Shown piece after piece: positions 16,975 to 64,000 of a DNA stretch of 64,000 nt. The translations under genes were made by a program, and so were the position numbers. Numbering within the stretch: position 1 is the first letter of the stretch; every line of letters starts with the position of its first letter. The stretch spans positions 49,416 through 113,415 of the forward strand of contig JAADJD010000062.1 in assembly GCA_013150955.1 (NCBI GenBank), given 5' to 3'. The notes under the pieces were generated by a model, which was not told the origin of the DNA, did not search any database, and was given only the letters and a program-made list of their open reading frames with translations. The stretch comes from Calditrichota bacterium. GTDB taxonomy: Bacteria; Calditrichota; Calditrichia; RBG-13-44-9; J042.

Positions 16975-18675
16975 ATGGAAAAGAAGGCATACAAAGTTTT
17001 ATATATCGAGGACGATTACGCGTCCCGCCTGCTGATCCGCAAGATATTGCGTTCCGGGGAATTCGATGTCCACGAGGCCAGCACCGGAATGGAAGGCCTG
17101 AAAAAGGCACAGGAACTGCAACCGGACATTATTTTAATGGATTTAAACCTGCCGGATATCTCTGGAACCAACCTGACCACCAAAATTAAAAGCATGCCCG
17201 AATTGAAGGACACAGTGGTGGTCGCCATTACCGCTCGCAACAGTGTGGAAGCCCGCCAGCTCTCGCTCATTGCTGGATGCCACGGCTACATCAGCAAACC
17301 CATCGATCCCCACACCTTCCCCGACCAGATCCGTCAATTCCTGCGCGGAAAGCGGGAAGAAATTGAATTTGAGAAACGGGACTACTACCATCAACTTTAC
17401 GAAGAAGCCCTGGTCAATAACCTTACCATCAAACTGCAGGAACTGCAACGATCAAACAGTTTACTTAAGCAACGCACCAGCACGCTCAAGGACTATTCCC
17501 GAAAGCTGGAAAAGCTGTTAACCATCATCAATGACCTCCAACTCTGCCATTCTTCGGAAAAACTGAAAGAAAAGTTGATCGATTATCTCTGCGAACTGTT
17601 TGCATTTGACCGATGCCTGTTTCTGGATGTGGACTTCGAGAACCTGACGCTAAAGGTCGCCGTTGGCAGGGGACTGGAAAAATCGCGCTGGGAAAATTTT
17701 CATCTGCCGTTTCAAACCCAACTCTTTCGCCGGCTGTTCAAGGAGCGGCAAATCCTCCCCAATCTCACAATTCAGCAAATTGAAAATCCTCAGATTCGGC
17801 AGTTATTGGAGGAGCTGGGCAGTCAACATTTTACTCTGGCCATTCTGGGCATTCCCGCCGATGCCGCCATCCAGATGAGCAGTAAGGAGAACCTGAAGGA
17901 ATTTATGAAACCCTTCCTGACCACATTAACCGCTACTGCGGATATTGACGTCCAGAACATCGAGGATCATTTGAGAGAATTCCTGCTCTCGGAAGTGTTC
18001 TACATCGGTGGCTATTTGTTTATGGACTATACCCATCCCACAAAAAAACTGTCCAGCCATGACCTGCGCATTCTGGATATGCTGCTGCGAACGTCCACTT
18101 TAATTTATCAGAATCTTCAGCTGCGGGAACATCTGAAAAAACTATTCATTCGTGCCGAGAAGGATGCCATCACCGATTACCTGACCAATCTTTACAATCA
18201 TCGCTACTTTATTCAGCAGCTGAGCCGGGAGTTCAATCGGGCACGGCGGCATAATTCTCAGTTCGCTCTGATCATGATCGACATTGATCATTTTAAGGAT
18301 TTCAACGATACATTCGGTCATCAGGCAGGCGATCTGGTCTTACAAAAAATTGGTCGGATCCTGCGGGAAAACACCCGCAAAAGCGATATTGCCGCCCGCT
18401 ACGGGGGTGAGGAATTTGCCATCATCTGTCCGGAGCTAAACAAGCGCCGGGGTCAGATCCTTGCCGAAAAATTGCGGAAAATTATCGAGGGAACGCGCCT
18501 GCCATTTTCTCAGGATACCCGGATTACCATTTCTGCCGGTGTTGCTGCCTTTCCGGAAGATGCGGACAATCCCCAGGATCTCATCCGCTGTGCCGATGTG
18601 GCCCTTTACGAAGCCAAACGGAAGGGACGCAACAGGGTACAGGCGTTTTCACCCGCGCTTCAAACCACCCCCTGA
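16975..18675 (+). CDS. response-regulator receiver plus GGDEF diguanylate cyclase (PleD-like)
   Basis: An N-terminal CheY-like REC domain (DD...D...K pattern) is followed by a central GAF-like region. The C-terminus has GGEEF and upstream RxxD-like residues. Confidence 0.8.
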   Translation: MEKKAYKVLYIEDDYASRLLIRKILRSGEFDVHEASTGMEGLKKAQELQPDIILMDLNLPDISGTNLTTKIKSMPELKDTVVVAITARNSVEARQLSLIAGCHGYISKPIDPHTFPDQIRQFLRGKREEIEFEKRDYYHQLYEEALVNNLTIKLQELQRSNSLLKQRTSTLKDYSRKLEKLLTIINDLQLCHSSEKLKEKLIDYLCELFAFDRCLFLDVDFENLTLKVAVGRGLEKSRWENFHLPFQTQLFRRLFKERQILPNLTIQQIENPQIRQLLEELGSQHFTLAILGIPADAAIQMSSKENLKEFMKPFLTTLTATADIDVQNIEDHLREFLLSEVFYIGGYLFMDYTHPTKKLSSHDLRILDMLLRTSTLIYQNLQLREHLKKLFIRAEKDAITDYLTNLYNHRYFIQQLSREFNRARRHNSQFALIMIDIDHFKDFNDTFGHQAGDLVLQKIGRILRENTRKSDIAARYGGEEFAIICPELNKRRGQILAEKLRKIIEGTRLPFSQDTRITISAGVAAFPEDADNPQDLIRCADVALYEAKRKGRNRVQAFSPALQTTP

Positions 18676-41243: not shown

Positions 41244-42533
41244 TTAAAATCGAAAACGACTGGTCACCGCCAGGGTGAATCCTTTGCTCCCTCCCGGAGT
41301 AATGGCACCGCGATTCATAAATCCCACATCGATGAACCAGACTTTCAGGTCAATGCCGGCTCCGAATGCAAACGTAAAGCCGGTCTTCCCCCCCACGGAG
41401 ATTCCCGCACGCAGCGGGATAATGGGAAAACCGGTGTATTCCACACCAACCGCCAATCGTGGAGTGGTGGTACCGCCCATGGAACGGTTCAATCCCTGCT
41501 CGTATTCCCCGGTAATTAACAATTGATTGTTCCAGCGGTAGGCCACGGCCAGATCCAGCACCGCAGGCAGGCGACTGCTGAAAGCGCCGATGGTGATGCT
41601 GGTATCCGATTCGACAAACAGGCTATCAGCCATGCGATCGGGGAAGGAAAGGCTATCGGCCTTGATGGAAAAAATACGTTGAGTGGTTTCTTTATTCCAT
41701 CGAATGCTACCAATGGGATTGATCAGCGCCAGACTGACCATCCATTTTTCTTCATATTGCCCAACAAATCCCAGATCGAAGGCAATGCCATTGCCACCCC
41801 GTGCATAGCGGAGACGCATCTGGGAATCCAGTGCCAGAAAGTCGCGCCCGTTGTAAAATTCGCCGCGGGAGTCTTCCACCTCGGCGTAAACCAATCCGGC
41901 CAGATATTTAAACGCCACCCCCACCGCGAAAAAGTCAAAATAATCTTCCAGAAAATCCAGCTCCAGCGGTCGGGAAATTCCCAGCGTGGCAGCCATCCCC
42001 AACCAGGCCTCGCCGTCAAAATTTCCAATCTGGTATGTCCGGTCGATGTCGACATTCCCTTTTAACGGCAGTTCAAGCATGTCCTTGGGCGCCTCTAAAA
42101 ATCCATTTCCCACAACCGCAAGGGACAGGCTCAGATTTCGGGCATAAAACGCCAGCGTATTAAATTTGGCCCAGAAGAAACCCTTCAAACCGGATTCATC
42201 AATGGCATTTAGAATCTCATTCTTATCCGCTGCGGTCAGGGAATCGCCCGTGGTAAAATAACGGTCGTATAGTCCCTTGGAAAGGCTATTGTTGAACACG
42301 CTAATATTGGCTGTCAGCAAATTGAATTCAAAATTGAATGGGCGATACAACGCCAGGGTGGCTGGATTGGTGCCCACCTGCTCCAGTCCCTTGGCATCGG
42401 CCGTGTTGCTATTGGCCATCCCGGCCGATCGCGCATCGAAGGACAATTGCGCAAACACCCCAGGCACCAGCAGCAATACACTGATAATGGCAATTTTTCC
42501 ATACCGTTTCATGGGATACCTACTGATTTTCAT
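41244..42533 (-). CDS. outer-membrane beta-barrel protein, FadL-like (PorV/LptO-like family candidate)
   Basis: The signal peptide, the NPATLA motif and the C-terminal aromatic residue (...SRFRF) support the call. Confidence 0.6.
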   Translation of the reverse strand: MKISRYPMKRYGKIAIISVLLLVPGVFAQLSFDARSAGMANSNTADAKGLEQVGTNPATLALYRPFNFEFNLLTANISVFNNSLSKGLYDRYFTTGDSLTAADKNEILNAIDESGLKGFFWAKFNTLAFYARNLSLSLAVVGNGFLEAPKDMLELPLKGNVDIDRTYQIGNFDGEAWLGMAATLGISRPLELDFLEDYFDFFAVGVAFKYLAGLVYAEVEDSRGEFYNGRDFLALDSQMRLRYARGGNGIAFDLGFVGQYEEKWMVSLALINPIGSIRWNKETTQRIFSIKADSLSFPDRMADSLFVESDTSITIGAFSSRLPAVLDLAVAYRWNNQLLITGEYEQGLNRSMGGTTTPRLAVGVEYTGFPIIPLRAGISVGGKTGFTFAFGAGIDLKVWFIDVGFMNRGAITPGGSKGFTLAVTSRFRF

Positions 42534-44616
42534 TCACGATCACTGTTAATTTCACCTGACCATTGACGGTGATGTAATCCACCGTGCGCAGGGCAACCTC
42601 CCCCGGTGTATCGGCAATTTTCAATTCGTATGCCACCCGAATTGGCGGCTGGCTCAAGATCCGCATTTCCTTACGGGTCAAATTGAACAGAACCTCGCTT
42701 TCCACCTCCTTATTGACGAATCCCGTGGCGGGATCCACCGTTGCCGCCTGCAGCTCAATTTCCTTAATAAATTCTTTATTGGGATTGAAATAGGTGGTAT
42801 CGAACAAATCGTTGCGCAAGGAATCGCGGGTGACAATCATCCGAACTTTTCCACCCAGCGGGGTATGATTCTTGACCCGAAGCGTCAGCGTTGCCTCCTG
42901 AATATCATTCTGTAAGGCATCCCGTAACTCCTGATCAATATCCTGCTCAGTTAACGTATCCACGCGGCTCTGAACGGGTTCCATACCCTGAATGGAAAAC
43001 TTCAAGGGTGTGGTTAGCTCGTAATTGGCCCAGACCTGACTTCCCAGGATCACTTCCGCTTCGCCAGAGGCGGTAATTTCGCCCTGCCCGCGAATGGAGG
43101 TTGGTAGAATGTTCACAAAATCCACCACCTCCGGGCCGGTCAATACAAATTGGGTTTGTCCTGGATTCCCCGGACGGCCGGGATTGATCGGCTGATTTAA
43201 AATCTCTATCTTTGCCGAATCGGTTACCACACCATTCTCATCTTCGTGATACCCCCACAAGGTGAGGTTTAACCGCAAATCTTCGATATACAACTCGTTG
43301 AATAGATTAAGAATCAATTTCACATCGGCCAAACGAATTCCCCCGCCTTCCAGGCGATTGTAATCGGCAATGTTCTTTTCCTCAAAAGGCCCAAAGTCAA
43401 TGGTTTCCGGGGCCAGAATACCGGTAAAGGATTTGAAGAACAGCGAGTCGGAAGAAATCTCGGTTACAATGTTGTCACTGCTCCGAACGGTTACAAACTG
43501 ATCCGATTTGCTGGTCTTGGTAAAGATGAGCACCTCAATGCTATCCAGCGGCACATTGGGGTCGGTCGGATTCTGAATTTTGATACCATCCAGAACAATC
43601 TTCTGGTTGATCGGGTCTTGATCAATAAACAAACTATCCTGGAAAGGATTGCCGTCGGGGCGGATCAGGCTTGGGATGGTGTAGACAATTTTACCGGAAA
43701 TGGCTGTCTCGTTCCGAAATGACAGGTAGAAATTGCCGCGACTGACCACCCCGCTTTTTATTTTATGCCGGCCGTTCAGGGCAAACCGAACCTTGCGCTG
43801 AAATTCCTGGGATTCCAGCTTTGCCTTCACGGAGCTGGCTTCCATATTGGCCAGATCCACAATGATCTGAATTCCGGTTTGATTCAACACTTCATCGGTA
43901 ATGGTAATAGTATCCTTCCGGGCAATGGGCACATTGTATTCCAGACGCAGGCGGTCATAAACATACATTCCCCCGGCAACGATATCATCCCGCCCTTCAC
44001 CCTGATCGCCAGAAGCCACTACCTTGTCGATCAAAATATCGCTTACCTGATTACCCAGACTATCATTCTTCAAGGTGAATTGAATTCCCGAGGAGGAATT
44101 GTTGGGCCCCAGATCGAAAGGCAGGTTATTAATGACCCGGATGATGATCGTCCCCTGCTCCAGATAAATCCACCGGTAATCCTCTGCCGTCAGAATCTTT
44201 GCCGGTGGAACCAGGGTGGTTTCCGGGATGACCACCTGGGCTCCTGTTGGCAAACTGGCCAGTTCAGGGAAGATTTCGGCCAGGGTAATCATTCCGGTGT
44301 TCATGGCCTGCAAGGAGTCCAATCGCAGAATCCCAATTTCCAGTTGATTGGTGCTTCCCCGGGGCTGAAATGCCAGTTCACTTTCCGAAAGGGTTTCTGG
44401 ATCAACCTCACCATTGACCTGAAGGGTGAGTAGCGAATCGGGATTCTGGGCCACGATGTTGGAATCGCCCAGCACCTCACTCATCTTAAACGTTTGTTCT
44501 GACAGGGGAAGAATCAGTGGAACCGCCCATCGCGGGAGTACCGGTTCCTTAAAATCGCAGGTCAGGAAGAACAATAGCGGAACCAGTACGGGAATTAACG
44601 CCTTAATTTTTTTCAT
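42520..44616 (-). CDS. large hypothetical lipoprotein (698 aa)
   Basis: The signal ends in a lipobox-like FFLTC. No recognised domain. It overlaps the downstream OMP gene by 14 nt. Confidence 0.55.
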   Translation of the reverse strand: MKKIKALIPVLVPLLFFLTCDFKEPVLPRWAVPLILPLSEQTFKMSEVLGDSNIVAQNPDSLLTLQVNGEVDPETLSESELAFQPRGSTNQLEIGILRLDSLQAMNTGMITLAEIFPELASLPTGAQVVIPETTLVPPAKILTAEDYRWIYLEQGTIIIRVINNLPFDLGPNNSSSGIQFTLKNDSLGNQVSDILIDKVVASGDQGEGRDDIVAGGMYVYDRLRLEYNVPIARKDTITITDEVLNQTGIQIIVDLANMEASSVKAKLESQEFQRKVRFALNGRHKIKSGVVSRGNFYLSFRNETAISGKIVYTIPSLIRPDGNPFQDSLFIDQDPINQKIVLDGIKIQNPTDPNVPLDSIEVLIFTKTSKSDQFVTVRSSDNIVTEISSDSLFFKSFTGILAPETIDFGPFEEKNIADYNRLEGGGIRLADVKLILNLFNELYIEDLRLNLTLWGYHEDENGVVTDSAKIEILNQPINPGRPGNPGQTQFVLTGPEVVDFVNILPTSIRGQGEITASGEAEVILGSQVWANYELTTPLKFSIQGMEPVQSRVDTLTEQDIDQELRDALQNDIQEATLTLRVKNHTPLGGKVRMIVTRDSLRNDLFDTTYFNPNKEFIKEIELQAATVDPATGFVNKEVESEVLFNLTRKEMRILSQPPIRVAYELKIADTPGEVALRTVDYITVNGQVKLTVIVNENQ

Positions 44617-44744
44617 TGGGAAAAACCTTTATTTTAAATTGCCTCACTCGTTATCGGGAAAATAAATAAATCGACACAAACGACTTAAATATGAGATAAT
44701 TTTTAATTTGCAAACTTGACTTAGGTCACTCCCGGATTCGAAAA

Positions 44745-46997
44745 TCACCGTTGCAGGACAAACCGATGAACGGAACGATTGCCCACATTATCCACCACGA
44801 AAACCTCCAGGTGTCTGGCGCCGGAAGGCAGGTGGCGGGGGTCTACCCGGATGAATTTTTCCTCCGGATCGTATTCAAACAACACCCAGCGGCCATCCGC
44901 CCGAACGGTGATCTGTTTCTCTTTGTATATGCCGGCCATCTCATCGTACACTTCAAAAAACAACGGGCGGCGGGCATTCAACAGGGAATCGTTCCGTACG
45001 GCACTTAACACCCGAAACACCGGCGGGATGGTATCCTGAATCAGCGTAAATTTTTCCAGGCTGGTGATGCGCGCTCGTAATGTATTCCCCTCCCAGCGGG
45101 TAGGTAAAAACAGCCATCCTTTTTTGCGATCCCAGTAGTATGCGCCCAGCCCTTTCACCCCGCGGAGCGAATCGGGTACCCGAAAGCCCATCTCGGCTCC
45201 CCGGCGAAAGGGCTGATCGAACGGTTGAACGTCGTACACCGGCGCCAACATCCGGTACGGCGATGCAACGGCGACCGTTTCATCGGGGACAATCTGTTGA
45301 ATCCGGCAAAACAGGGTGTCGTATACACTCTCGCTTTCGAAACGAATCTCCAGTTGCCCATTCGACGATGCAACCCGCTGCACCTTTCCCGGCACCACCG
45401 GATGCCATTGCTGCAGCTCCGCCACCAGAAAAGGAAATTCATCCACCGGCAATTGGCTAATCCGGAAAAAATCCTCCACAGATAAAACCATCAATGCCTC
45501 TTCGCGCAGGGGATAAATGGGAATCGCCCTGAAGATGTCCGATTCCAGCAACCGGGGCACCAGATGAATGGGCACTTTTATTCCCAGCTGATTGCCACGG
45601 AAAACGATTCGTGGAGTAACACTGCTGCGGGTGGTTTGATCTTCTGGATCGACCGGATCTTCCAGTTGCGGATTCAGGTACACCGGCAACCCCGGCGATT
45701 GCGCCGTGTAGTAAGGGATGACTTTTAATTCCGGAATTTCCGGATTGGTCTTCAAGGGGATGGAAAGAAAATACCAGAAATCGCTGGCAATTTTTTGAAC
45801 ATCATCCAGAACGTATTGCGCGGGATCGCTAACTTTTCCAGACGCCGCCGGTTCACGAATCTCAATCCAGGTCAAGGGTTGCGGAGAGCGAACCGACAGC
45901 AGCAGTTTTTTTTGAACCACGCCCCGCGTCTCCACCTGCACCTGCAGATTTCGGTGAAAAATAATCGTCCCGCGGATCACCGTCTCATTCTGATGAAAAT
46001 CCCGCAAACGGATCTCCACCGTATTTTCCCCATCATTCAGCAATCGCTCATCCAGAATGCCACCTTCAGGAGGAGTATCGGGATAAACCGGCAGAACATT
46101 CGCGGGATGACGGAAGAGATTTTGAAACTTGCCCCATCCCTTTCGCCATAACGAGAAATTTTTATCCAGCTCCACCAGGTGGGTATGGCTGTAGCTGAAA
46201 CGATCATAGCGCACATGAAAGGCCGGTACCTGATTGACCAACAATTCGGCTTCATAAAGGCCAAATTTGTTGTGCACCCCGTTGCCCATATCATATGCAC
46301 GAATGGCCAGGTAGGCCGGCCCGGAAAGGTAGAGCGGTTCCGATAATTCAATGGTTTTACCTGCGTGAAGGGGAATGATGAGTGTATCCGGTTCAAAATT
46401 AATGAATGTGCGTACCTTCAGGGGAATCACGGCCAGAAAACGTGCCCGTGGCGGGATGGTATCTTCCACCTCACCCGGATAAAAACGCAACGGATTCATG
46501 GGACGGTTTTGCGGATCGCGAATTTCGAAATGCAGGTGGGGCACCCCGATTCCCGTTTCGCCGGTATAGCCAATGACCTGTCCCTTTTGCACCGGAAATG
46601 CAGAGGGCTCGGGGAAATAGTCCAGCACGTACTGTTGCCGCTTCATCCGCAATCGATCCGCAAACGCCTCGATTTCCGGAATGAACCGTTCCAGGTGGGC
46701 GTAAACCGCAATGTTGCCATCCTTTAATTTCACATACAGGGCCTTTCCGTAACCATTTGCAGAGACCCGAATCCGATAAATGTAGCCATCATCGATGGCA
46801 AAGATCTTGTACCCGGTTCGATTCCAGGTTTTAATATCGATGGCAGCGTGAAAATGGCGCGGACGAAATTCGCAGAAACTGCTGGTCAGGTGTTTGCTGG
46901 CATTGGTGGGCCAGAGGTAATCCCCGGCCATAAGCCCCACCGGAACCCCCAGAAAAAAAGTAAGAAGTATCCGTTGAACGCGTGAAAATATGTTCAT
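44745..46997 (-). CDS. M23-family metallopeptidase with N-terminal anchor and about 570 aa C-terminal region of unknown function
   Basis: The HxxxD motif (HFHAAIDI) and the HxH motif (VPHLHFEI) of LytM/M23 are present. Confidence 0.7.
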   Translation of the reverse strand: MNIFSRVQRILLTFFLGVPVGLMAGDYLWPTNASKHLTSSFCEFRPRHFHAAIDIKTWNRTGYKIFAIDDGYIYRIRVSANGYGKALYVKLKDGNIAVYAHLERFIPEIEAFADRLRMKRQQYVLDYFPEPSAFPVQKGQVIGYTGETGIGVPHLHFEIRDPQNRPMNPLRFYPGEVEDTIPPRARFLAVIPLKVRTFINFEPDTLIIPLHAGKTIELSEPLYLSGPAYLAIRAYDMGNGVHNKFGLYEAELLVNQVPAFHVRYDRFSYSHTHLVELDKNFSLWRKGWGKFQNLFRHPANVLPVYPDTPPEGGILDERLLNDGENTVEIRLRDFHQNETVIRGTIIFHRNLQVQVETRGVVQKKLLLSVRSPQPLTWIEIREPAASGKVSDPAQYVLDDVQKIASDFWYFLSIPLKTNPEIPELKVIPYYTAQSPGLPVYLNPQLEDPVDPEDQTTRSSVTPRIVFRGNQLGIKVPIHLVPRLLESDIFRAIPIYPLREEALMVLSVEDFFRISQLPVDEFPFLVAELQQWHPVVPGKVQRVASSNGQLEIRFESESVYDTLFCRIQQIVPDETVAVASPYRMLAPVYDVQPFDQPFRRGAEMGFRVPDSLRGVKGLGAYYWDRKKGWLFLPTRWEGNTLRARITSLEKFTLIQDTIPPVFRVLSAVRNDSLLNARRPLFFEVYDEMAGIYKEKQITVRADGRWVLFEYDPEEKFIRVDPRHLPSGARHLEVFVVDNVGNRSVHRFVLQR

Positions 46998-49880: not shown

Positions 49881-51173
49881 TTATATTACCCGTTTCACAA
49901 TCAACAGGGTAACATCATCCTGATTGGCAGCGGTGCCGCAAAATTGAGCCACGGCGTCCAGAATTTTCTCTCCCAGCGCCCGGGCAGAAAGTTCGCCGTT
50001 GGATTTCAACAACCGGATCAACCCGTCCAGGCCAAACATGCTACCATCCGCACATTGGGCTTCCGTGATCCCATCGGAACAGATCACCAGCACATCACCG
50101 GGTTGCATTCTGGCCTGTCCTTCCCGATAGGTTAGCGGATGCAGAAAACCCAGCGGAAGACCACCGGTTTTTAGCTGGCGGATCAGGGGGTCACCGTTTC
50201 GGTAATGGAGTAAAAGCGGTGGCACATGTCCGGCATTGATGTATGTTAAACGGTGTTTGCGGGTATCCAGTTGCACCCAGACCACGGTCGCAAATTTGTC
50301 CTGTGCGGTGAAATCGAACAGATGCTGGTTAATCTTACGAAGCATGCGCGGGGCGGACATTCGGCTGCCCACCAGGGCATGAAAGGCTGCCTGCAAATTG
50401 GCCATCAGTAAGGCAGCGGGTATGCCCTTGCCGGATACATCCACCAGCACCAAACCCAGATTTTCATGTTGAGGGAAAAAATCGTAGTAATCTCCTCCCA
50501 CAAATTTGGATGGCTTTTGAAAGGCAAAGATCTCGTACTGCCGAAGCCGGGGCCATTGTTCCGGTAGCAGATGTTTCTGAATCTCAGCCGCCACCTGAAG
50601 CTCTTCTTCCAGGCGTTTGCGCTCCAGTGCCTCGTGATAGAGCTGAGCGTTCTGAATTGCCACGGCGATATGATCCGCAAAGGCGCGCAAAAACTGAACA
50701 TCACCCTCCCGAAACGGCCCCTCCTTTTTGTTCATAGACTCCACCACTCCAATGATGTGCCCATCCCGGTCCCGCACGGGCACACACAACACGGAACGGG
50801 TGCGGTATCCGCTGCGGCGATCCACTTCGGGATTAAACCGCGGATCCTGATACGCATCGGCAACATTCACGACCTCTCCGGTCCGGGCCACGTAGCCTGC
50901 CAACCCTCTGCCAATGGGCTGCCGGATCTCCAGGGATGCATCCCCCAGCAGCACCTTTGACCAGATTTCGCCCTTTTCCACATCCACTAAAAACAGCGTG
51001 CTGCGATCCGCATCCAGATTGCGGTTTACTTCCCGGACAATAATGTTCAACATTTCATCCAGGTTGAGGGTGGAATTGACCAGTTGAATGGCACTGAGCA
51101 GGGCCTGCAACTGGCCTGTGGTCAAAGGAATTTCCTGCTGCCCTGCCGGGAACGATTCCGTTGTCTCAGTCAT
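49881..51173 (-). CDS. GAF sensor domain plus PP2C-type Ser/Thr phosphatase (SpoIIE/RsbU-like)
   Basis: An N-terminal GAF domain is followed by PP2C motifs GGDYYDF, DVSGKG and DGITEA. Confidence 0.75.
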   Translation of the reverse strand: MTETTESFPAGQQEIPLTTGQLQALLSAIQLVNSTLNLDEMLNIIVREVNRNLDADRSTLFLVDVEKGEIWSKVLLGDASLEIRQPIGRGLAGYVARTGEVVNVADAYQDPRFNPEVDRRSGYRTRSVLCVPVRDRDGHIIGVVESMNKKEGPFREGDVQFLRAFADHIAVAIQNAQLYHEALERKRLEEELQVAAEIQKHLLPEQWPRLRQYEIFAFQKPSKFVGGDYYDFFPQHENLGLVLVDVSGKGIPAALLMANLQAAFHALVGSRMSAPRMLRKINQHLFDFTAQDKFATVVWVQLDTRKHRLTYINAGHVPPLLLHYRNGDPLIRQLKTGGLPLGFLHPLTYREGQARMQPGDVLVICSDGITEAQCADGSMFGLDGLIRLLKSNGELSARALGEKILDAVAQFCGTAANQDDVTLLIVKRVI

Positions 51174-55432: not shown

Positions 55433-55524
55433 GAAATGAACAATCCCTTCCTGCGTCCCGGTGCAGGAAGGGATTCACCCATCCCAAAGTTTTCCCGATT
55501 CGCCCCATTAATCATCGGCTATCC

Positions 55525-55652
55525 AATAAACCCTCAACAAGTTTCCATCCAAGATATAATCTTTTTATTTGTGTTCATTCGTGTTATTCGTGGTCTCATG
55601 GATAAATCGCATTGTGTCGCGCTCATCGTGCTCAAAACAGAATCCAGATTAA
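55525..55652 (+). mobile_element. MITE-like element partial copy K (right half only)
   Basis: AATAAACCCTCAACAAGTTTCCATCCAAGATATAATCTTTTTATTTGTGTTCATTCGTGTTATTCGTGGTCTCATGGATAAATCGC ... CAGATTAA. Confidence 0.45.
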
Positions 55653-57019
55653 AATTTGTAAGAAAGACCGATCATGACCCGCGTTACCCGGATATCTTCC
55701 AGCGTTCCACCCGGCGTCAAGGCGTCTTCGGACTCCTGCTTCCAGGCACCATACAGATAGGTGATGTTTAACGATACGTACTGATCCAGTTTAAAGCCCA
55801 ATCCAGAGGTCAAATACACCCGATCCATCGTTTTGGGGGCACCCTGGTAAGGCGCGGGAATGTAAATGTAACCACCGCGCACACGAAGCATTTCCCCCAG
55901 TGCCCATTCACCGCCGATCTGATAGCGGATGGTCTCCCGATACTCCCGCCGGATAACGCGATTTTCATCCAGTAAAGCGGCATAATCGGGATCGTCCATG
56001 GAATTCTCCGGGATGACAAACCGGGTTTGCGACCAATCCCGATACCGGAAACTGGCGGCCAGGGTGAACGGCTTCACCCTCAACGAAATACCGCCATCGA
56101 AATAAAACGGCGTCTGGACTTTGTACTGGAATTCTCCTCGATCCAGTTCTTGCTGGTCACTAAAACCATCGTCGTAGACCAGTTCATCGGTTGCCAGATA
56201 GGATTCGGTTACCGTAAAGGTCACCGGCAATCCAATGGTAGCCCCCAGACGGGCAAATCCGCCCAGTTTAAACATACCCCCAATTTTCATCCCGATGGCC
56301 GAATACTGGGACTGGATGGACTCTTCGTATTTGTACGAATAAAAATCGGCTACCATTTTAGGTTCTGAGTATTCATTGTAAATATCTTCCTGGTAAAAGA
56401 ACAATTGATAATTTTCCCGTCCCCGCCAGATGTCCAGACTGACCCCGAGGTCAAAATTGGGGGACAACGCAATGGCCGCCGCAACGCTCCAGTTCCGTAA
56501 TCCACCTTCGTTGTTCACTTCCTCGGTCTGCTGGACATTCTTATCAAACGGGTAATAAACTTCCTGCCCATCTTCGATAACCGGGATTTCCAGACCATTG
56601 CTCTGGGTATTGAATCCCTCAAAGAGCAGGGAACGATCAAAATCTTTCACCCGGTTGTAACCAAAGCCAAGCACAAAGCTGCCTCGCGTGGTAGGAAGAG
56701 GCAGGGCAAATCCAATCGCCCGCACCTGGGTAAAGCCCTGACTTTGATCGGTGGTTACACCATAAAAGGTTGCCGAATTGTTGAAATTTATGTGAGACAA
56801 TTCTCCATAAAATTCCGATTGCCGCAGGGAAGCCAGTCCCGCTGGATTCCAGTAGATGGATAAATAATTATCCGTGGTTGCGGTGAAAGCACCGCCCATG
56901 GACAGGGCACGGGCACCAAAGCCCATCTCGTCCTGCACAATCCGAACCGCATCGAACGCACTTTGACCCCACAGGTTGACACCGAGCATCAGTAACAGAG
57001 AAACAACACCCCGCCACAT
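55649..57019 (-). CDS. outer-membrane beta-barrel protein, FadL-like (paralogue of the 41244-42533 gene)
   Basis: The signal peptide, the NPAGLA motif and the C-terminal ...LSYKF support the call. Confidence 0.65.
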   Translation of the reverse strand: MWRGVVSLLLMLGVNLWGQSAFDAVRIVQDEMGFGARALSMGGAFTATTDNYLSIYWNPAGLASLRQSEFYGELSHINFNNSATFYGVTTDQSQGFTQVRAIGFALPLPTTRGSFVLGFGYNRVKDFDRSLLFEGFNTQSNGLEIPVIEDGQEVYYPFDKNVQQTEEVNNEGGLRNWSVAAAIALSPNFDLGVSLDIWRGRENYQLFFYQEDIYNEYSEPKMVADFYSYKYEESIQSQYSAIGMKIGGMFKLGGFARLGATIGLPVTFTVTESYLATDELVYDDGFSDQQELDRGEFQYKVQTPFYFDGGISLRVKPFTLAASFRYRDWSQTRFVIPENSMDDPDYAALLDENRVIRREYRETIRYQIGGEWALGEMLRVRGGYIYIPAPYQGAPKTMDRVYLTSGLGFKLDQYVSLNITYLYGAWKQESEDALTPGGTLEDIRVTRVMIGLSYKF

Positions 57020-57047: not shown

Positions 57048-58328
57048 TTAACGCCGTTTAATCGTTGCCCGGGAAGACGTTCCCCGGCTGGAACTGGAAG
57101 AGCGGCTGCTTCCGCTCCAGCTGCTTCGCGAAGAGGAACTGGATGAAGACCGATAACTGGGCCGGCTGGACGATCGAGACGGCGACCGATAGCTGGGCCG
57201 ACTGGAAGAACTGGATCGGCTGGATCGATAGGATGGCCGGGACGAGCTGCTCTTCCGGGCAGGCGCTACCGACTCCTGACGTGACTTTCGATAGCTCCGG
57301 TACTTTTTAGTTTCGCTACTGCGAGTCCGTCGGATTTCCCGGGTGTGCGAAGATCCATTTTCCCGCGCGCGAACCACTTTCTTTTCCGTCCGCCGCGGGC
57401 TTTTAGTCCGAACCACCTTGCGCTCACTTCGCTTTGAAGAGCGGACGTCTTTCTTGACTCGCCTCTTTTCTTCGGTGCTCAATCGGGCGCGTTTGCGCTC
57501 CCGATCGTAAATCTTCCGGATAATGCGCTGCTTGTCCGCATTGCGATTGCCATTAGTTAACTCCTTCGGAACCCGGGTGCGGATAATTTCTGGCGTTCGG
57601 CGCCGATTCCGTTCGCGATCAGGAACCTCCCGCTCCACCACGGTACGCTGTTTCCGCTCCGCCACCTGGCCGCGCTTACCGTTGCTGACCACCGGACTGG
57701 AAGCGACCGGTCGGACACCCCCAACCAGCGTCCGATCCGACGGTTCTCGATCACGAATCAGTGGTTTACGGCGATCCCACTCACGCCGCTTGGTCGGCGC
57801 GCGATCCACCACATATCCATAGTTGATCCATCCGCCCCAGTAAAATCCATCCCAATAATACGGCGAATATCCATAAAACCCCCAATAGCCAGTGTAATAA
57901 TAATCCCACCAGTAGTACGGATAAGACCAATACGGATAATACACCACTACCGGAGGTGGGTAATACCAGAACGGTCGACCAAAATGCAATCCAATGTGAA
58001 CACTAACAAAGGGGCCATAGAAGGGATCATAAAAGAATGGATCGTAATAAAACGGATCATAGAAAAACGGATCGTACCAGCCGCCAACAATGTAATCACG
58101 ATTGTAAAAGTAATAATTTTTAACAATGGTACGACCATAGCCGTAGTCATCGTAAGCCTCTTCCTCGTAAACGGTGTCTACCTCAGCAGTGGTATACTCT
58201 TCATCCGAATACACCACTGTGGTGGAGGTGACACCCCTCGTGGTACCAAACGTGGTATAACATCCCTGAAAAAGTAACAGCGAAACAACCGCTGTTGTTA
58301 TCATCAAAATGGATCGCCAGGATTTCAT
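57048..58328 (-). CDS. unusual lipoprotein with an aromatic-rich (Y/W/F/P) block plus an Arg/Lys/Ser-rich repetitive tail
   Basis: MKSWRSILMITTAVVSLLLFQGC is a signal with lipobox Cys. YDPFF occurs four times and a WYYPPPVVVYYPYWSYPYYWWDYYYTGYWGFYGY block follows. The C-terminal 230 aa carry about 40% R/K/S with three SSSRPSYRS units. GAGGTG lies upstream of ATG 58326-58328. Confidence 0.6.
   Translation of the reverse strand: MKSWRSILMITTAVVSLLLFQGCYTTFGTTRGVTSTTVVYSDEEYTTAEVDTVYEEEAYDDYGYGRTIVKNYYFYNRDYIVGGWYDPFFYDPFYYDPFFYDPFYGPFVSVHIGLHFGRPFWYYPPPVVVYYPYWSYPYYWWDYYYTGYWGFYGYSPYYWDGFYWGGWINYGYVVDRAPTKRREWDRRKPLIRDREPSDRTLVGGVRPVASSPVVSNGKRGQVAERKQRTVVEREVPDRERNRRRTPEIIRTRVPKELTNGNRNADKQRIIRKIYDRERKRARLSTEEKRRVKKDVRSSKRSERKVVRTKSPRRTEKKVVRARENGSSHTREIRRTRSSETKKYRSYRKSRQESVAPARKSSSSRPSYRSSRSSSSSRPSYRSPSRSSSRPSYRSSSSSSSRSSWSGSSRSSSSSRGTSSRATIKRR
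57150..57250 (-). repeat. about 27-30 bp imperfect tandem DNA repeats (x3) encoding the SSSRPSYRS units
   Basis: CGATAACTGGGCCGGCTGGACGATCGAGA, CGATAGCTGGGCCGACTGGAAGAACTGGA and CGATAGGATGGCCGGGACGAGCTGCTCTT. Confidence 0.5.
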
Positions 58329-58363: not shown

Positions 58364-58380
58364 CTCAATATATGTGCCAA
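58364..58380 (-). promoter_or_regulatory. candidate sigma54 promoter (-24 TGGCAC, N5, -12 TTGAG) upstream of the lipoprotein-OMP operon
   Basis: The minus strand reads TTGGCACATATATTGAGTTA. The -24 element and spacing are exact, but the -12 element is TTGA instead of TTGC. The site lies about 35 nt upstream of the ATG and next to the NtrC-family regulator. Confidence 0.35.
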
Positions 58381-58502
58381 AAGATTCTGTGGAAAAGGGA
58401 ATATCACAAAACGACCGATTTTTCTTGAAAAATCAACGGGTTTGCCCATGCTCCTGAATGGCGGGACGATCAGACCACTGTCAACTTTGTTGACACAAGG
58501 TG

Positions 58503-59951
58503 CTAATCCAGTTTATACTTTGCCAGATCGATCCGGTACCGCTGTAGTTTTTTATGCAGTCCCATGCGACTCAAACCCAATTCCCGTGCCGTCTGGCTGA
58601 TGTTTCCCCGATTTTTTTGCAATGCCCGCTCGATAAAATACCTCTCCATCTGTTCCACCCGTTCTTTTAACTGCAATGCCCCCTGACCATTAAAAGGTGC
58701 TCCGTCTGTCGTGTGGATCTCCGGAAATTCAATCAAATCAGGTGTAATGGCCATCCCATCATCCGCCAGCACAATCGCGCGTTCGATGATATTCTCCAGC
58801 TGACGCACATTGCCCGGGTAATCGTAATCCCGCAACCGTTGGAGCGCTTCCGGGTGGATGCCGGTGATTCGCTTGCCCATCTTCAAGGAATATTTCCGGA
58901 TAAAATGATACACCAGTTCGGGGATATCCTCCCGGCGCTCCCTTAAAGGCGGCAAATGGATGGGAAACACATTCAAACGATAGAACAAATCTTCCCGAAA
59001 TTTGCCTTCCTGCACTGCCCGAGCCAGATCCCGATTGGTTGCGGAAATGACCCGGACATTCACATGAATGGCTTTTTCGGATCCCACCGGGTGAATCTCC
59101 CCTTCCTGCAATACCCGAAGCAGGCGTTTCTGAAATTCCGGGGAGGTTTCTCCAATCTCATCCAGAAAGATGGTTCCGCCATCGGCCAGTTCAAACAATC
59201 CTTTTTTATCGCGAGTGGCCCCGGTAAAGGCCCCTTTTACGTGACCAAATAATTCGCTTTCCAGAAGGGTTTCCGGTAACGAAGCACAATTCTGACTGAC
59301 AAACATTTTATGTTTACGAGGGCCGTTGTAATGAATTGCCCGGGCGACCAATTCTTTGCCCGTGCCGGTTTCCCCGGTGATTAAAACCGTGACGTCCGTG
59401 GGAATCACCTTTTTTAGCAAATGAAACACCTTTTGCATGGCCGGACTTTTGCCAATGATATGGTCGAAGGTGTATTCGGCCTCCATCTCGCGTTGCAGCA
59501 GCAAGTTTTCCGCGGCCAGCCGTTCGTTGGCCTGACGCAATTCTTCCAGTAAGCGTTCATTGTCTTTTTTCAGCTGATAATGTTCAATGGCCCGACGGAC
59601 GATCAGTCGCAACTCATCCGGTTCCCAGGGCTTTTGAATGTAGTAGAAAATTTGCCCCTCATTAATGGCCCGGATAGTGGCATCGATATCGGAATACCCG
59701 GTAATCAGGATGCGCACCGCATCCGGCTGAATGTCTCTGGCCTGCCGCAGGAATTCCACTCCGGTCATTTCGGGCATCCGTTGATCCACCAGTAAAACGG
59801 CAACCGGTTGCTTGCGGATCACTTCCAGAGCCGATAATGGCGAAGAGGACAGGATCACCTCATAGTCCCGTCGTAAAATGCGCTGAATGGCGTGCAAGAT
59901 CCCCTGTTCGTCATCCACGGCCAGAACCGTGTACCGTCGATTCGTTGACAT
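58503..59951 (-). CDS. sigma54-dependent response regulator (NtrC family: REC, AAA+ and Fis-type HTH)
   Basis: The REC domain is followed by GETGTGKE (Walker A), the GAFTGA sigma54-contact loop, ESELFGH and a C-terminal HTH. Confidence 0.9.
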   Translation of the reverse strand: MSTNRRYTVLAVDDEQGILHAIQRILRRDYEVILSSSPLSALEVIRKQPVAVLLVDQRMPEMTGVEFLRQARDIQPDAVRILITGYSDIDATIRAINEGQIFYYIQKPWEPDELRLIVRRAIEHYQLKKDNERLLEELRQANERLAAENLLLQREMEAEYTFDHIIGKSPAMQKVFHLLKKVIPTDVTVLITGETGTGKELVARAIHYNGPRKHKMFVSQNCASLPETLLESELFGHVKGAFTGATRDKKGLFELADGGTIFLDEIGETSPEFQKRLLRVLQEGEIHPVGSEKAIHVNVRVISATNRDLARAVQEGKFREDLFYRLNVFPIHLPPLRERREDIPELVYHFIRKYSLKMGKRITGIHPEALQRLRDYDYPGNVRQLENIIERAIVLADDGMAITPDLIEFPEIHTTDGAPFNGQGALQLKERVEQMERYFIERALQKNRGNISQTARELGLSRMGLHKKLQRYRIDLAKYKLD

Positions 59952-62900
59952 TATTTCCTCTCCTCATCCCTGTTTTTCCCGGTTTCCCTGGAAAGTGGCA
60001 AATAGATCCGAAAACACGTCCCCTTTCCTTCCTGACTTTCAACTTCGATGCGCCCCCCATGATCCTGAATGATCCGGTAACTGATACTCAATCCCAGTCC
60101 CGTTCCCTGGCCCACAGGTTTGGTGGTAAAAAACGGATCAAAGATCCGCGAAAGCACATCGGCTGGAATGCCTTTTCCATCGTCGCGAATCTCCACGCAC
60201 ACTCGATCCCCTTCACTGCGTGTGGTGATCCAGATGTTTCCTTTCCCCTCAATGGCCTGAATGGCATTCAACAAAAGGTTCATGAATACCTGATTGATTT
60301 GCCCGGGCTGACAGACAATTCGGGGTAGCTCGCCATACTTTTTGTGAACCCGAATCCGATCCCGAATTTCGTGGCGCAGAAGGGTCAGGGTCGATTCCAG
60401 GCCTTCGTGTAAATCCACCGACTTGAACGCCGCTTCGTCCAGTCGGGAAAAATTGCGTAAGTTTTGCACCACTTCTTTCACCCGTCGGCTTCCATCCAGG
60501 CTTTCCTGAATCAAACCATTCAAATCGTTTAAAATAAAGTCCAGATCGTATTGATCCTGTAATTGTTGTACCGTTTCTTTTAACTTTTCGGGCAGATCCC
60601 TGGCATCCCGTTGTTTTAAAATGACCTCCAGCAATCGCGAGAGCGCCTCGACATATTCCTGCAGGGTCTTCAAATTGGCATACACAAAGCTAATGGGATT
60701 ATTTAATTCGTGGGCAACCCCCGCGACCAGTTGCCCCAGACTGGACATTTTTTCGCTCTGGATGAGCTGGGCCTGCGCCTCCTTCAATTCCTGATACAAT
60801 CGCCGCAATTCCCGGTTCTTCGCTTCCAGCTCCCGCACATATTTCTCCCGCACCTCGGCCTCAGTCACCTTCTGAATCAACCGCTTGGTCTCTTCGATAT
60901 AGCGATTGTTTTCCACGGCAATGGCGGCCTGATTGGCAATAATCTGCAAAATGCTTCGATCCTCCGCATTCAATTCCCGACGTCTCTCCCCGGTTACCAG
61001 AACAATCACTGCATACAGGTTATCCTCCCGGCCAATCGGGATCAGGTAATCGCAGGGAATTCGGGTGAACTCCGGCAACTGTCTTTGAATCTCATCACAG
61101 GCCAGAATGCGCCCCCCGCTCAGAAGCGCCTGTTTAGACGGGTCGAGCGAGATTTCCGGCATTTGTGGAAGCGTTTTTCCGGAACGGGCCACCTCACGAA
61201 ACACATCGCCCTGCTTTTCCATGACCAGACAGAGCGATATTTCCAGCGCCCGGTGAATGGTGGAAGCCAGCTGGGAGAACAGCTCCTGATTGGTTTTAAT
61301 TAAAATCAAATCCCGCGAAAATGCCTGCAGCAGACGGCGATAGCCAAACCGCTTTTCCTCCACCCGGCGAATTTTCTCCAGCACCACGGTGGCCGCCCCG
61401 ATCACCACCAGCAAAACCCCCAGCTGGGTGGTTAAAATTTTTCGTACCGGCTCTTCCCGATACATCCAGAACACCCCGTAAAGCAGCCCAATCATTAACA
61501 GAATGAAGGCATTAAAACTCACATTGCGCCAGTGGTAGCGCGAGCCAGCCAGGGAAAGAAAGGCCACAATGATGCCAAAAATCAATAACGACAATCCCAG
61601 ATTGATCCAGAAATCCAGTTGTTGAACCAGGCGACCCAGGGAATGCATCATTCGGTAGGACACCTTCCGCAGGCCGGTTTTTTCTTCCACGATGTACACA
61701 TTTCCCGGTTTCAGCCCGGAACGCCAGCGTTCGGTGCCGGAGGGGAAGACGATTCGCGCAGTGTATTGTCCCCCGGCGTCCACCCCAAAATGGGCCACCA
61801 GTTCGCTCAGGGATAAATAACCCTGTCCCCCACTGATTTCCCGAAAACCAACCAGCACCAGGCTGTCCCGCTCATCTCGTTTATACAACCACACCCGGGT
61901 GCCCACAGCATCGCGATTGCTCCCGACCCCTTCAAGGATCAGGCGGACATAATTTTTGTTATTTAACGGATTGAGATACAGAACGGAATGGGTGTCCTTG
62001 TTGGCCACAAATACGTCCAGATCACCATCGTCATCCAGATCCGCTACCGCCACCCCGGTGCTGTAATTCTGGTTTCGAACGGTACCCGGGAGCCGTTCCT
62101 CAAACACCCGTTCCAGCAGCTGCCCATTTCGATTCAAATAAAATTGATTGGGGCCAATGTTGGAGAAAAAAACATCCTGCCACCCGTCGTTGTTTAGATC
62201 AGCAATGATACCGCCATACGCCGGGTAGGGATTGGCCACCTGAAACGGCCGGGGAGCTTCCTCAAATTGCCAGTTCGTGTCCCCGGCCGCTGTATGATTC
62301 AGATACAGGCGACTGTGGCCATCGCGATCCGCAACCAGAAAATCGAGATCGCCATCATTATCCACATCGCCAAAAACCACGCTGTTGCTATTCACCGCGT
62401 GTTGGAGGTGAAACAACGGCAAAGAAACCGGACGGAAGGACATTCCCCCGCGATTTTCATAAAGCGTATCTGGAGCAAACCAATTGCAAACGTAGAGATC
62501 CAGATCACCATCCCCATCCACATCGGCAAAGGCCGCACCCTGACTTACCGCACGCGAAGCCACCCCATATGCCGACGCCCGATCGCGAAAATACCGCCCA
62601 TCGTAATTGATGAACAGATGATTGGCATGGTGCTCGTCCGTAACGAACAAATCCAGGTCACCATCGCCATCCACGTCTCCCCAGATTCCCATATTGCCAT
62701 CCAGGGGACGCCGCAACCCCATCTCTTCGGTCACATCCTGAAAACGAAAATGGGGCAACTGGCGAAACAATCGGGTACTGACCCCCCACCCCAGAATCAG
62801 CACATCCACCCGGCCGTCATCGTCAAAATCGACGGCCGATCCGCCAAGCTCCAGATTAACCTTTTTGCGCGGCATAAGGTTACCCCCCAGGCCGGTGGCG

Positions 62901-63211
62901 ATGGTTCGATCTTCGAAGGTTTGCCCTCCCTGGTTCACAAATAACCGGTTGAGATTCCGAAATCGCACCACATAAAGATCCGGATAACCATCATGATTCA
63001 AATCGCGAAACACCACCCCGTAACTGTCCCCAAACTCCGGTAATAGAGAATGACTCACCGGTTGGGCAAACATCCGGGCGACCCAGAGGGAATCTCCAGT
63101 TGCACCTGCAGAACTCATGAATAAAAAAATCAGGCCAATAGCCCCCAGCCAGCGCATGCTCCCGCACGGTGAAAAGCCTGGGGAACGCTCACAGTAGGTT
63201 ACTGTTTCCAT
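59951..63211 (-). CDS. sensor histidine kinase with extracytoplasmic seven FG-GAP repeats plus UnbV_ASPIC domain, TM, coiled coil, HisKA and HATPase_c
   Basis: Seven D-x-D/N-x-D-G-x-x-D FG-GAP blades are present (for example FGDVDNDGDLDFLV). The ASPIC/UnbV block is VGTRVWLYKRDERDSLVLVGFREISGGQGY. The H-box is HELNNP and the G-boxes are DDGKGIP and GTGLGL. The start is ATG 63209-63211, TTG 63214, or ATG 63157 if the signal peptide is cleaved. Confidence 0.8.
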   Translation of the reverse strand: METVTYCERSPGFSPCGSMRWLGAIGLIFLFMSSAGATGDSLWVARMFAQPVSHSLLPEFGDSYGVVFRDLNHDGYPDLYVVRFRNLNRLFVNQGGQTFEDRTIATGLGGNLMPRKKVNLELGGSAVDFDDDGRVDVLILGWGVSTRLFRQLPHFRFQDVTEEMGLRRPLDGNMGIWGDVDGDGDLDLFVTDEHHANHLFINYDGRYFRDRASAYGVASRAVSQGAAFADVDGDGDLDLYVCNWFAPDTLYENRGGMSFRPVSLPLFHLQHAVNSNSVVFGDVDNDGDLDFLVADRDGHSRLYLNHTAAGDTNWQFEEAPRPFQVANPYPAYGGIIADLNNDGWQDVFFSNIGPNQFYLNRNGQLLERVFEERLPGTVRNQNYSTGVAVADLDDDGDLDVFVANKDTHSVLYLNPLNNKNYVRLILEGVGSNRDAVGTRVWLYKRDERDSLVLVGFREISGGQGYLSLSELVAHFGVDAGGQYTARIVFPSGTERWRSGLKPGNVYIVEEKTGLRKVSYRMMHSLGRLVQQLDFWINLGLSLLIFGIIVAFLSLAGSRYHWRNVSFNAFILLMIGLLYGVFWMYREEPVRKILTTQLGVLLVVIGAATVVLEKIRRVEEKRFGYRRLLQAFSRDLILIKTNQELFSQLASTIHRALEISLCLVMEKQGDVFREVARSGKTLPQMPEISLDPSKQALLSGGRILACDEIQRQLPEFTRIPCDYLIPIGREDNLYAVIVLVTGERRRELNAEDRSILQIIANQAAIAVENNRYIEETKRLIQKVTEAEVREKYVRELEAKNRELRRLYQELKEAQAQLIQSEKMSSLGQLVAGVAHELNNPISFVYANLKTLQEYVEALSRLLEVILKQRDARDLPEKLKETVQQLQDQYDLDFILNDLNGLIQESLDGSRRVKEVVQNLRNFSRLDEAAFKSVDLHEGLESTLTLLRHEIRDRIRVHKKYGELPRIVCQPGQINQVFMNLLLNAIQAIEGKGNIWITTRSEGDRVCVEIRDDGKGIPADVLSRIFDPFFTTKPVGQGTGLGLSISYRIIQDHGGRIEVESQEGKGTCFRIYLPLSRETGKNRDEERK

Positions 63212-63360
63212 CAATGTGGACTTTTCCCCGTTGCATTAAGTGTTTAAGCATGTAACGACTCGAATTACCCTGAATACACAACGCTTAAGTAAAGATGTTC
63301 ACGCAGATAAAACGAACCGCGATTTGCAAAAATTCCTCTGAAACCATTCGATTTGAAGCC

Positions 63361-63525
63361 AAGTAATGCATTGAACCGCGAATCACGCGAATGAACACAA
63401 AAAATATCAATTAAAATCACGAATAAACCTCGAAGTGAATTTTCATACAGATCTAATCCAATGGATTTTATTAATTGGTATTAATCCGTGCAATTCGTGG
63501 TCTAACGCAGAATTTCGGCTAAATG
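63361..63525 (+). mobile_element. MITE-like element copy L (forward, diverged right terminus)
   Basis: AAGTAATGCATTGAACCGCGAATCACGCGAATGAACAC ... ATTAATCCGTGCAATTCGTGGTCTAACGCAGAATTTCGGCTAA. Confidence 0.55.
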
Positions 63526-63724
63526 ATAATTCGTGCCAACTCGCATGCATTTTCGGAATCTGAGTTAACAATTTGAATGCCCTGTGCAGGGCGTTCAAGC
63601 CGGGCAATAGAAACACCTCCCCGATCCATTCAGTGTTTTTTCTGAGAATGTCATCAATATAGACCGGAACGATGGGGGATTCAAGGGTAAACTGGAGTGA
63701 ATCAGGCGCTGTGGAGCGAACAGA

Positions 63725-64000
63725 CTATTCGCGAATGCGGGGCGGGGTGTATTCCCGGCAGGGATCCACCACCCGGGCATAGGGACTGTTCCAGCTTTTT
63801 AGAAAGGTGCGCGCAATGATCCGGACAATACCCTTGCTTCTTACCACCAGGCCCAGATTCCGGGAGCGGTGAAAATAACTCTCCGCCCAGTTGGAAGTGC
63901 CCACCCACACCCATTCATCATCCACAACCATAAACTTGCAATGCTCCACCCGGGCAAAGGGGATAAATCCACCGCTGTATTCGGGCAATTCGGTAAAGCG
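63725..64000 (-). CDS. phospholipase D-family (HKD motif) protein, C-terminal part; the N-terminus lies beyond the window end
   Basis: HCKFMVVDDEWVWVGTSNW matches HxKx4Dx6GSxN. Confidence 0.55.
   Translation of the reverse strand, partial: RFTELPEYSGGFIPFARVEHCKFMVVDDEWVWVGTSNWAESYFHRSRNLGLVVRSKGIVRIIARTFLKSWNSPYARVVDPCREYTPPRIRE

Follow-up and report, generated by a model that had tools for sequence, protein, structure and literature searches.

The DNA analysed here (the window) was a stretch of 64,000 nucleotides from a Calditrichota bacterium (GenBank assembly GCA_013150955.1, contig JAADJD010000062.1, positions 49,416 to 113,415 of the forward strand), and the system of interest in it comprised four genes on the minus strand. 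In the direction of transcription these encoded a sensor histidine kinase (59951..63211, stop included), a response regulator of the NtrC/AtoC type, that is, a sigma-54 enhancer-binding protein (58503..59951), a lipoprotein of 426 aa (57048..58328) and an outer-membrane barrel of the FadL fold of 456 aa (55649..57019). The kinase carried a CRTAC1-like beta-propeller module ahead of its transmembrane helices, and a putative sigma-54-type promoter preceded the lipoprotein gene, downstream of the activator gene. All features of the system given below lie on the minus strand.

The kinase gene was called from the list of open reading frames, its translation, Pfam matches and an identical NCBI protein. 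The open frame (59951..63214) had 1087 codons, and the ATG at 63211 resulted in a product of 1086 aa. The identical NCBI protein (P0001; GXO78_15100, annotated as "hypothetical protein" in a metagenome-assembled genome of a Calditrichaeota bacterium) was 1068 aa long and started with MRWLG at 63157; with this start, the kinase begins with a typical signal sequence. The ATG at 63157 (1068 aa) is more probably the true start than the one at 63211 (1086 aa); a preliminary description of the locus, made from the DNA letters, had put the length at about 1070 aa, in agreement with the NCBI protein. Residues of the kinase are numbered from the ATG at 63211. Of the NCBIfam models, T2SS_HK matched the kinase best (332 bits against a cut-off of 450); the match was confined to the C-terminal kinase core, and the model was not used to name the protein. 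The kinase gene was preceded by an AT-rich, non-coding stretch (63215-63724; about 500 nt) without a match to a -24/-12 promoter, and the kinase operon therefore does not seem to be under autoregulation by way of sigma-54. A gene end at 63725-64000, beyond this stretch, had an HxK-type motif in its printed translation, which was read by eye as phospholipase-D-like.

The sensor region of the kinase was composed of three elements. A signal peptide or first transmembrane helix (63095..63157; residues 19-39, MRWLGAIGLIFLFMSSAGATG) coincided with a hydropathy peak at residues 21-39 and with a helix in the AlphaFold2 model. It was followed by a seven-bladed FG-GAP/VCBS beta-propeller (61922..63094; residues 40-430), called from Pfam, loop motifs, AlphaFold2 and the match to CRTAC1, and by an UnbV/ASPIC beta-sandwich (61652..61921; residues 431-520), called from PF07593 and aligned with the same domain of CRTAC1. 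Pfam FG-GAP_3 matched the kinase in five stretches (E 2.1e-39) and FG-GAP with E 1e-7, and UnbV_ASPIC (PF07593) matched residues 435-503, directly after the propeller (27.6 bits against a cut-off of 23.4). Loops of the calcium type, [DN]x[DN]x[DN]G, occurred seven times (residues 70, 128, 179, 230, 282, 338 and 391) at a spacing of 50-55 residues, and seven blades were therefore assigned. The preliminary description had proposed seven calcium-binding blades of the FG-GAP/VCBS type and an UnbV_ASPIC domain, and both assignments held. The Pfam search of the kinase at E ≤ 0.01 returned no further repeat class, and the sensor region was accordingly not reassigned to another class of repeats with known sensor usage. 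The sensor was acidic, with an isoelectric point (pI) of 4.9, compared with a family median of 4.6.

The likeness of this module to CRTAC1, also part of the preliminary description, was borne out by both sequence and structure. When the 522-residue N-terminal part was searched against all of the PDB, the sole sequence match was cartilage acidic protein 1 (9etn_A; E 1.3e-20). The AlphaFold2 model of the sensor, built from 86 homologues, had a predicted local distance difference test score (pLDDT) of 92.7 and a predicted TM-score (pTM) of 0.92, and its top Foldseek match was murine CRTAC1 (E 6.9e-30; TM-scores 0.74/0.71), a match that spans propeller plus sandwich, because 511 columns were aligned. 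The next Foldseek matches were fungal FG-GAP lectins that bind N-acetylglucosamine (GlcNAc), with E about 1e-11 and a TM-score of 0.44. Animal CRTAC1 is secreted and carries an EGF-like region at its C-terminus. No Pfam match to an EGF-like domain was found in the kinase, and three transmembrane helices plus a kinase follow the module; the protein thus shares the module type of CRTAC1 without being its orthologue.

Hydrophobic segments of the kinase were found by hydropathy at residues 21-39, 538-556, 564-582 and 592-610, the last three of which form the link between sensor and cytoplasm (three transmembrane helices; 61376..61600). Positively charged loops after the second segment (SRYHWRN) and the fourth segment (KIRRVEEKRFGYRR) agreed with an out-in-out-in path. 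From the positions of the hydrophobic segments, residues 40-537 would be extracytoplasmic, and the GAF, DHp (dimerization and histidine phosphotransfer) and CA (catalytic and ATP-binding) domains would be in the cytoplasm. The chain is accordingly predicted to run from a signal peptide or anchor through an extracytoplasmic part of about 500 residues and three transmembrane helices to a cytoplasmic GAF-DHp-CA part, consistent with the extracytoplasmic sensor proposed earlier.

The cytoplasmic GAF domain (60902..61291; residues 641-770) was matched by Pfam GAF, GAF_2 and GAF_3 at residues 642-768. In the DHp/HisKA domain (60422..60745), Pfam HisKA covered residues 825-926 with profile positions 2-65 (28.7 bits against a cut-off of 26.9), and the hairpin had an insertion of about 37 residues. 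The H-box (GVAHELNNP) contained His834, which was nearly invariant among the 86 homologues. The HATPase_c catalytic domain (59981..60319; Pfam residues 970-1074) was matched with E 3.5e-30 (105 bits against a cut-off of 26.4), and its ATP-binding N, G1, F and G2 boxes were intact (NLLLNA at 978, DDGKGI at 1010, FDPFFTTK at 1024 and GTGLGLS at 1036). The protein is thus a sensor kinase with HisKA and HATPase_c domains, as described before, with every catalytic motif in place and a predicted kinase activity. The GAF domain, the three-helix transmembrane bundle and the conserved target operon considered below were absent from the preliminary description.

Conservation, measured as the percentage of columns that were conserved at 90% or more over the 86 homologues, differed among the regions of the kinase. 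It was highest in CA (37%) and DHp (35%), followed by the propeller (29%) and UnbV (20%), and was 5% in both the transmembrane bundle and GAF. The propeller, with 113 such columns, was roughly on a par with the catalytic core. The conserved positions included the calcium loops and many motifs outside the loops (RFRNLNR, TI..GLGGNL, NLELG, CNW, IGPN and YSTG). Two relatives (P0152 and P0237) were without GAF and kept both propeller and kinase. The difference in conserved columns (29% vs. 5%) and the absence of GAF from some relatives favour a conserved function of the propeller, which would serve as the conserved input rather than GAF.

The combination of this sensor with a kinase had been called uncommon as a two-component input. 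The sensor domain matched 65,151 representative proteins (3,727 with E ≤ 1e-30), most of which were giant multi-propeller or secreted proteins. Among the best 150 of these 65,151 matches, about two dozen were kinase-like: approximately 18 were about 1000-1090 aa long and matched once, at the N-terminus, and the others were shorter fragments; HisKA plus HATPase_c were present in 16 of the 22 proteins from the best 150 that were scanned for domains. On the other hand, the kinase family comprised more than 120 full-length homologue clusters (clustering at 90% identity), with 41-87% identity to the query, and nearly all listed homologues bore FG-GAP_3, UnbV_ASPIC and HATPase_c. One metagenome representative (P0216; 1135 aa) had an extra N-terminal propeller, an FG-GAP propeller, UnbV_ASPIC, HisKA_3 and HATPase_c; judged by its domains, it is an independent fusion of a CRTAC1-like module to a kinase core of the NarX/LiaS type, and its HisKA_3 core would mean that the fusion of propeller and kinase arose more than once. 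Fusions of this kind are therefore rare among FG-GAP proteins, yet they make up a sizeable and recurrent kinase family, which qualifies the word uncommon. Named carriers of the family were Calditrichota/Calditrichia, Neomarinimicrobiota (Marinimicrobia), Fidelibacterota and Aliifodinibius (a relative of Balneolales), and a few bins were labelled Deltaproteobacteria or Planctomycetia. Database names of family members were generic only. Full-text literature searches on UnbV or FG-GAP histidine kinases found no paper on the family, and searches on CRTAC1 structure 9ETN and on sigma-54/FadL/lipoprotein in Calditrichaeota returned nothing relevant.

The activator gene was identified from Pfam, NCBIfam and its sequence. 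The stop codon of the kinase (TAA) and the ATG of the activator had one base in common (TAATG at 59951), and the two genes are translationally coupled by this 1-nt overlap, as the preliminary description had it. Pfam domains of the activator were Response_reg, Sigma54_activat (248.8 bits), AAA_lid_14 and HTH_8 (a Fis-type helix-turn-helix), and its motifs included receiver D55, Walker A (GETGTGKE), Walker B and GAFTGA. The activator scored highest on the AtoC/NtrC models of NCBIfam, far under the equivalog cut-offs (AtoC, 440 against 714 bits), and the kinase had 213 bits on the AtoS model against a cut-off of 646.

Downstream of the activator gene, a perfect palindrome of 17 bp (TGTCAACAAAGTTGACA; 58479..58495) is the putative enhancer to which the activator would bind. 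It was followed, between the activator gene and the promoter, by a terminator-like hairpin (58436..58449), which was weak (5 pairs only) and was given low weight. The putative sigma-54-type -24/-12 promoter (TGGCACATATATTGAG; 58364..58379) had the form TGGCAC-N5-TTGA and was located 51 nt upstream of the lipoprotein ATG at 58328, which was preceded by a Shine-Dalgarno sequence. In the whole window, the sigma-54 consensus with two mismatches was found 42 times against 35.8 expected, which is not above chance, and the promoter call rests for this reason on position and on conservation across loci.

The lipoprotein was identified from its translation, its composition and its position in 10 loci. 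It had the lipobox LFQGC-YT, followed in order by an acidic stretch, a core of 80 aa with 51% Tyr/Trp/Phe (repeats such as DPFFYDPFYYDPFFYDPFY), the motif KREWDRRK and a basic tail of 239 aa (pI 11.9; 74 Lys/Arg and 67 Ser/Thr) with poly-Ser and RR at its end. Neither Pfam nor NCBIfam matched the lipoprotein, and a homologue search with its N-terminal 215 residues returned one weak match only.

The barrel was assigned from Pfam, NCBIfam, AlphaFold2, Foldseek and its NPAG hatch motif. Pfam Toluene_X (PF03349) matched it with 50.9 bits against a cut-off of 29.7, and the AlphaFold2 model had a pLDDT of 92.7. The best Foldseek matches were BamG of B. thetaiotaomicron and F. johnsoniae (9hiv_F, E 4.4e-20; 9n2d_B), and FadL/TodX came next with TM-scores of about 0.6. 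In the hatch (WNPAG), N58 and P59 were invariant. The barrel subfamily was small (177 matches), with a taxonomic range equal to that of the kinase family, and for several of its members the length of the longest contig was the same as for kinase homologues. Identity with PorV was rejected, PorV structures being far poorer matches (TM-scores 0.35-0.38) than BamG or FadL, and so was a housekeeping BamG, as the barrel scored below the cut-off of that model and its site behind a sigma-54-type promoter also argues against it. The barrel may be a regulated BamG paralogue devoted to one lipoprotein. A strong hairpin (13 pairs; 55442..55475) after the barrel gene is the likely end of the cassette, and convergent transporter genes were located beyond it.

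Contigs from other genomes were scanned with two automatic peptide patterns, one of which derived from the generic kinase core; the scan gave at least 9 loci and is not a census. The gene order kinase-activator-lipoprotein-barrel was found in 10 of 11 related loci with downstream DNA (L002-L008 and L010-L012), a recurrence that spans several phyla of uncultured bacteria, and the genetic coupling of the kinase with a receiver-containing gene was likewise kept in 10 of 11. Two of these loci (L010 and L011) were near-identical, which leaves 9 other distinct cassette loci. In all 9, the motif TGGYAY-N5-TTGN could be seen in the corresponding position ahead of the lipoprotein ATG; the distance from promoter to ATG, measured by script in four matched loci only, was 48-55 nt. 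The chance expectation for TGGYAY-N5-TTG, as estimated in this analysis, was about 0.004 per 250-nt region, so that its presence in every cassette locus is not due to chance. Further upstream, one or two palindromes of the form GTnnAC-N3-GTnnAC were present in the related loci at the same relative place, with a sequence that depended on the lineage. The positional lipoproteins of the 10 loci had in common a GC-YTQ lipobox, a core with 36-51% aromatic residues, KR[DE]W[DE]RR and a basic, Ser-rich tail; the lipoprotein family is identifiable only by position, GC-YTQ lipobox and composition. Two insertions of unrelated genes were observed precisely where the activator gene gives way to the lipoprotein promoter: L010 carried a MazE/PIN toxin-antitoxin pair there (12669-13243), and L005 an open reading frame of 156 aa (4843-5313). 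The location of both insertions indicates that the junction between activator and lipoprotein is an operon boundary and that the two units are separable.

The kinase is considered likely to be the sensor of a self-contained, sigma-54-dependent two-component circuit that controls the lipoprotein and barrel genes. In such a circuit, the propeller would recognise a conserved periplasmic or envelope ligand, most likely a glycan or a protein partner, and its calcium would be structural, as it is in integrins and CRTAC1. Ligand binding would shift the transmembrane bundle and so set the balance between kinase and phosphatase on His834, and the phosphoryl group would be transferred from His834 to D55 of the activator. 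The phosphorylated activator would then bind the palindrome and remodel the sigma-54 holoenzyme at the promoter (58364-58379), which would induce the lipoprotein and the barrel. The latter two are proposed to be an outer-membrane pair, in which the barrel would keep the lipoprotein in place or display it, on the model of BamG and BamH: BamG, a FadL-fold barrel, grips the lipidated tail of the lipoprotein BamH (PMC12611786).

Several results weigh against this circuit or parts of it. Regulation of the downstream operon is suggested by position and motifs only, and the -12 element of the promoter in the window was TTGA instead of TTGC. An orphan kinase of the family (L009, 6653-9805; 39% identity) was without an adjacent activator, lipoprotein or barrel. 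The partnership of lipoprotein and barrel is proposed by analogy with BamG; the barrel scored 58.6 bits on the NCBIfam BamG model (NF053685), below the cut-off of 250, and it retained the NPA hatch that is typical of true FadL transporters. All carriers of the family seen in this analysis were derived from metagenomes or single cells, and none is genetically tractable yet. Downstream of the L009 kinase gene came an NTase_sub_bind gene, a gene for an AraC/GyrI-like regulator and genes of a tripartite ATP-independent periplasmic (TRAP)-type transporter.

A more specific version of the circuit would be a switch from sensing to sticking, in which the propeller, acting like a lectin, detects a glycan or contact cue, sigma-54 induces a Tyr-rich, polybasic lipoprotein resembling mussel adhesives, and the BamG-like barrel exports or holds it. 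This version is a doubtful possibility, and equally doubtful is the associated view of the four genes as an envelope module of particle-associated bacteria of the FCB (Fibrobacterota-Chlorobiota-Bacteroidota) group.

The signal might instead be calcium, or divalent cations, as such, in which case the occupancy of the DxDxDG loops would be read directly and the regulon would remodel the outer membrane to the cation supply. The seven conserved acidic loops and the acidic sensor (pI 4.9) are consistent with this, and acidic periplasmic surfaces are used by cation-sensing kinases such as PhoQ. However, the loops of FG-GAP propellers, integrins included, bind Ca2+ tightly and structurally, and seawater Ca2+, at about 10 mM, is nearly constant for many carriers; moreover, the many conserved positions outside the loops (RFRNLNR, GLGGNL..NLELG, CNW, IGPN and YSTG) suggest another binding surface. 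Calcium as the signal is thus judged unlikely.

Lower still is the probability of a feedback or envelope-surveillance sensor, comparable to NlpE-Cpx and RcsF-Rcs, whose acidic propeller would monitor the basic tail of the lipoprotein or mis-assembled complexes of lipoprotein and barrel. Envelope sensing by way of lipoproteins is an established principle, sensor and lipoprotein were strictly linked in 10 of 11 loci, and their charges are complementary (pI 4.9 in the sensor vs. 11.9 in the lipoprotein tail). That tail, however, is of low complexity and fast-evolving, whereas the propeller is highly conserved.

Uptake of a hydrophobic substrate, with a FadL-type barrel that imports a lipid or hydrocarbon and a kinase that senses it, would parallel the control of TbuX, XylN and TodX by sigma-54 or two-component systems. 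The FadL fold and the invariant NPA hatch motif of the barrel fit this function, relatives of the barrel are labelled OmpP1/FadL transporters by NCBI and JGI, and the kinase-activator pair scored best on AtoS/AtoC among named equivalogs. It is as improbable as surveillance of the lipoprotein, since no locus had catabolic genes in its cassette, a large hydrophilic propeller with calcium loops would be an unusual receptor for hydrophobic compounds, the aromatic and basic lipoprotein, obligatory in the cassette, is left unexplained, and the best structural matches of the barrel were to BamG and not to FadL. Finally, it is very improbable that the propeller is not the input at all, its periplasmic module being an anchor or having an adhesive or enzymatic role while the cytoplasmic GAF reads the signal: GAF is present and domains of this class commonly sense small molecules, but it was among the least conserved parts (5% of columns vs. 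29% for the propeller) and was missing from P0152 and P0237, which had propeller plus kinase.

The circuit with the propeller as input resembles several known systems in part. The module is shared with CRTAC1/ASPIC (murine PDB 9ETN) and with bacterial VCBS plus UnbV_ASPIC proteins of the "CRTAC1 family"; CRTAC1 is without a kinase, whereas here three transmembrane helices and GAF-HisKA-HATPase_c follow the module. The hybrid two-component systems of Bacteroides (BT4663, PDB 4A2L; 3OTT; 3V9F) are likewise membrane kinases of the FCB group with a periplasmic seven-bladed propeller followed by a beta-sandwich, a module that binds glycans in those systems. Their sensors are made up of Reg_prop (PF07494) plus YYY domains, however, and the kinase here did not match these. 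Fungal FG-GAP propeller lectins of the PVL/AAL2 type (PDB 2BWR, 4TQJ and 5MB4) are also seven-bladed and bind GlcNAc or sialic acid between blades, so that the FG-GAP fold can read sugars; they differ from the sensor here in their TM-score (0.44), in having no UnbV domain and in an identity of 15-19%.

NtrB-NtrC, AtoS-AtoC and ZraS-ZraR are alike in the adjoining genes for a HisKA/HATPase_c kinase and a GAFTGA activator, the (here putative) -24/-12 target promoter and the upstream palindrome, but neither their input domain nor their regulon is related to that of the present system. The barrel shares with BamG and FadL/TodX the fourteen-strand FadL fold, the N-terminal hatch and the NPA motif; BamG pairs with the lipoprotein BamH, whereas the barrel here is behind a sigma-54-type promoter and next to a low-complexity lipoprotein that is unrelated to BamH. 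The system is therefore of an ordinary kind, a sigma-54 two-component system, and its input module and conserved regulon are undescribed.

Inputs of two-component systems are mostly unknown in abundant uncultured lineages of marine and sediment habitats, such as Marinimicrobia and Calditrichota. For this kinase family, the input fold has a solved animal counterpart (CRTAC1), and no bacterial study of the fold as a kinase input was retrieved. The output is legible from the DNA as one promoter and two genes, which makes the system unusually testable, and the lipoprotein represents an unstudied type of protein that is beyond the reach of sequence searches. If the propeller reads glycans, the family would be a second, independent solution to propeller-based glycan sensing in the FCB group, beside the hybrid systems of Bacteroides. 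If the switch from sensing to sticking were true, it would open a bacterial route to the ligands of the CRTAC1 fold.

Other features were observed elsewhere in the window. Three genes on the minus strand at 41244-46997 encoded a DUF5723 protein of 429 aa, a protein of 698 aa without a Pfam match and a protein of 750 aa with an M23 peptidase domain, and may form another outer-membrane or cell-wall module. Further signalling genes encoded a 7TMR-HDED/7TM/HD receptor (1219-3732, plus strand), a receiver-GGDEF diguanylate cyclase (16975-18675, plus strand) and a GAF-SpoIIE (PP2C) phosphatase (49881-51173, minus strand). Genes for selA (L-seryl-tRNA selenium transferase) and selB (selenocysteine elongation factor) were close together at 5531-9318 on the plus strand, and their presence indicates that the organism makes selenoproteins.

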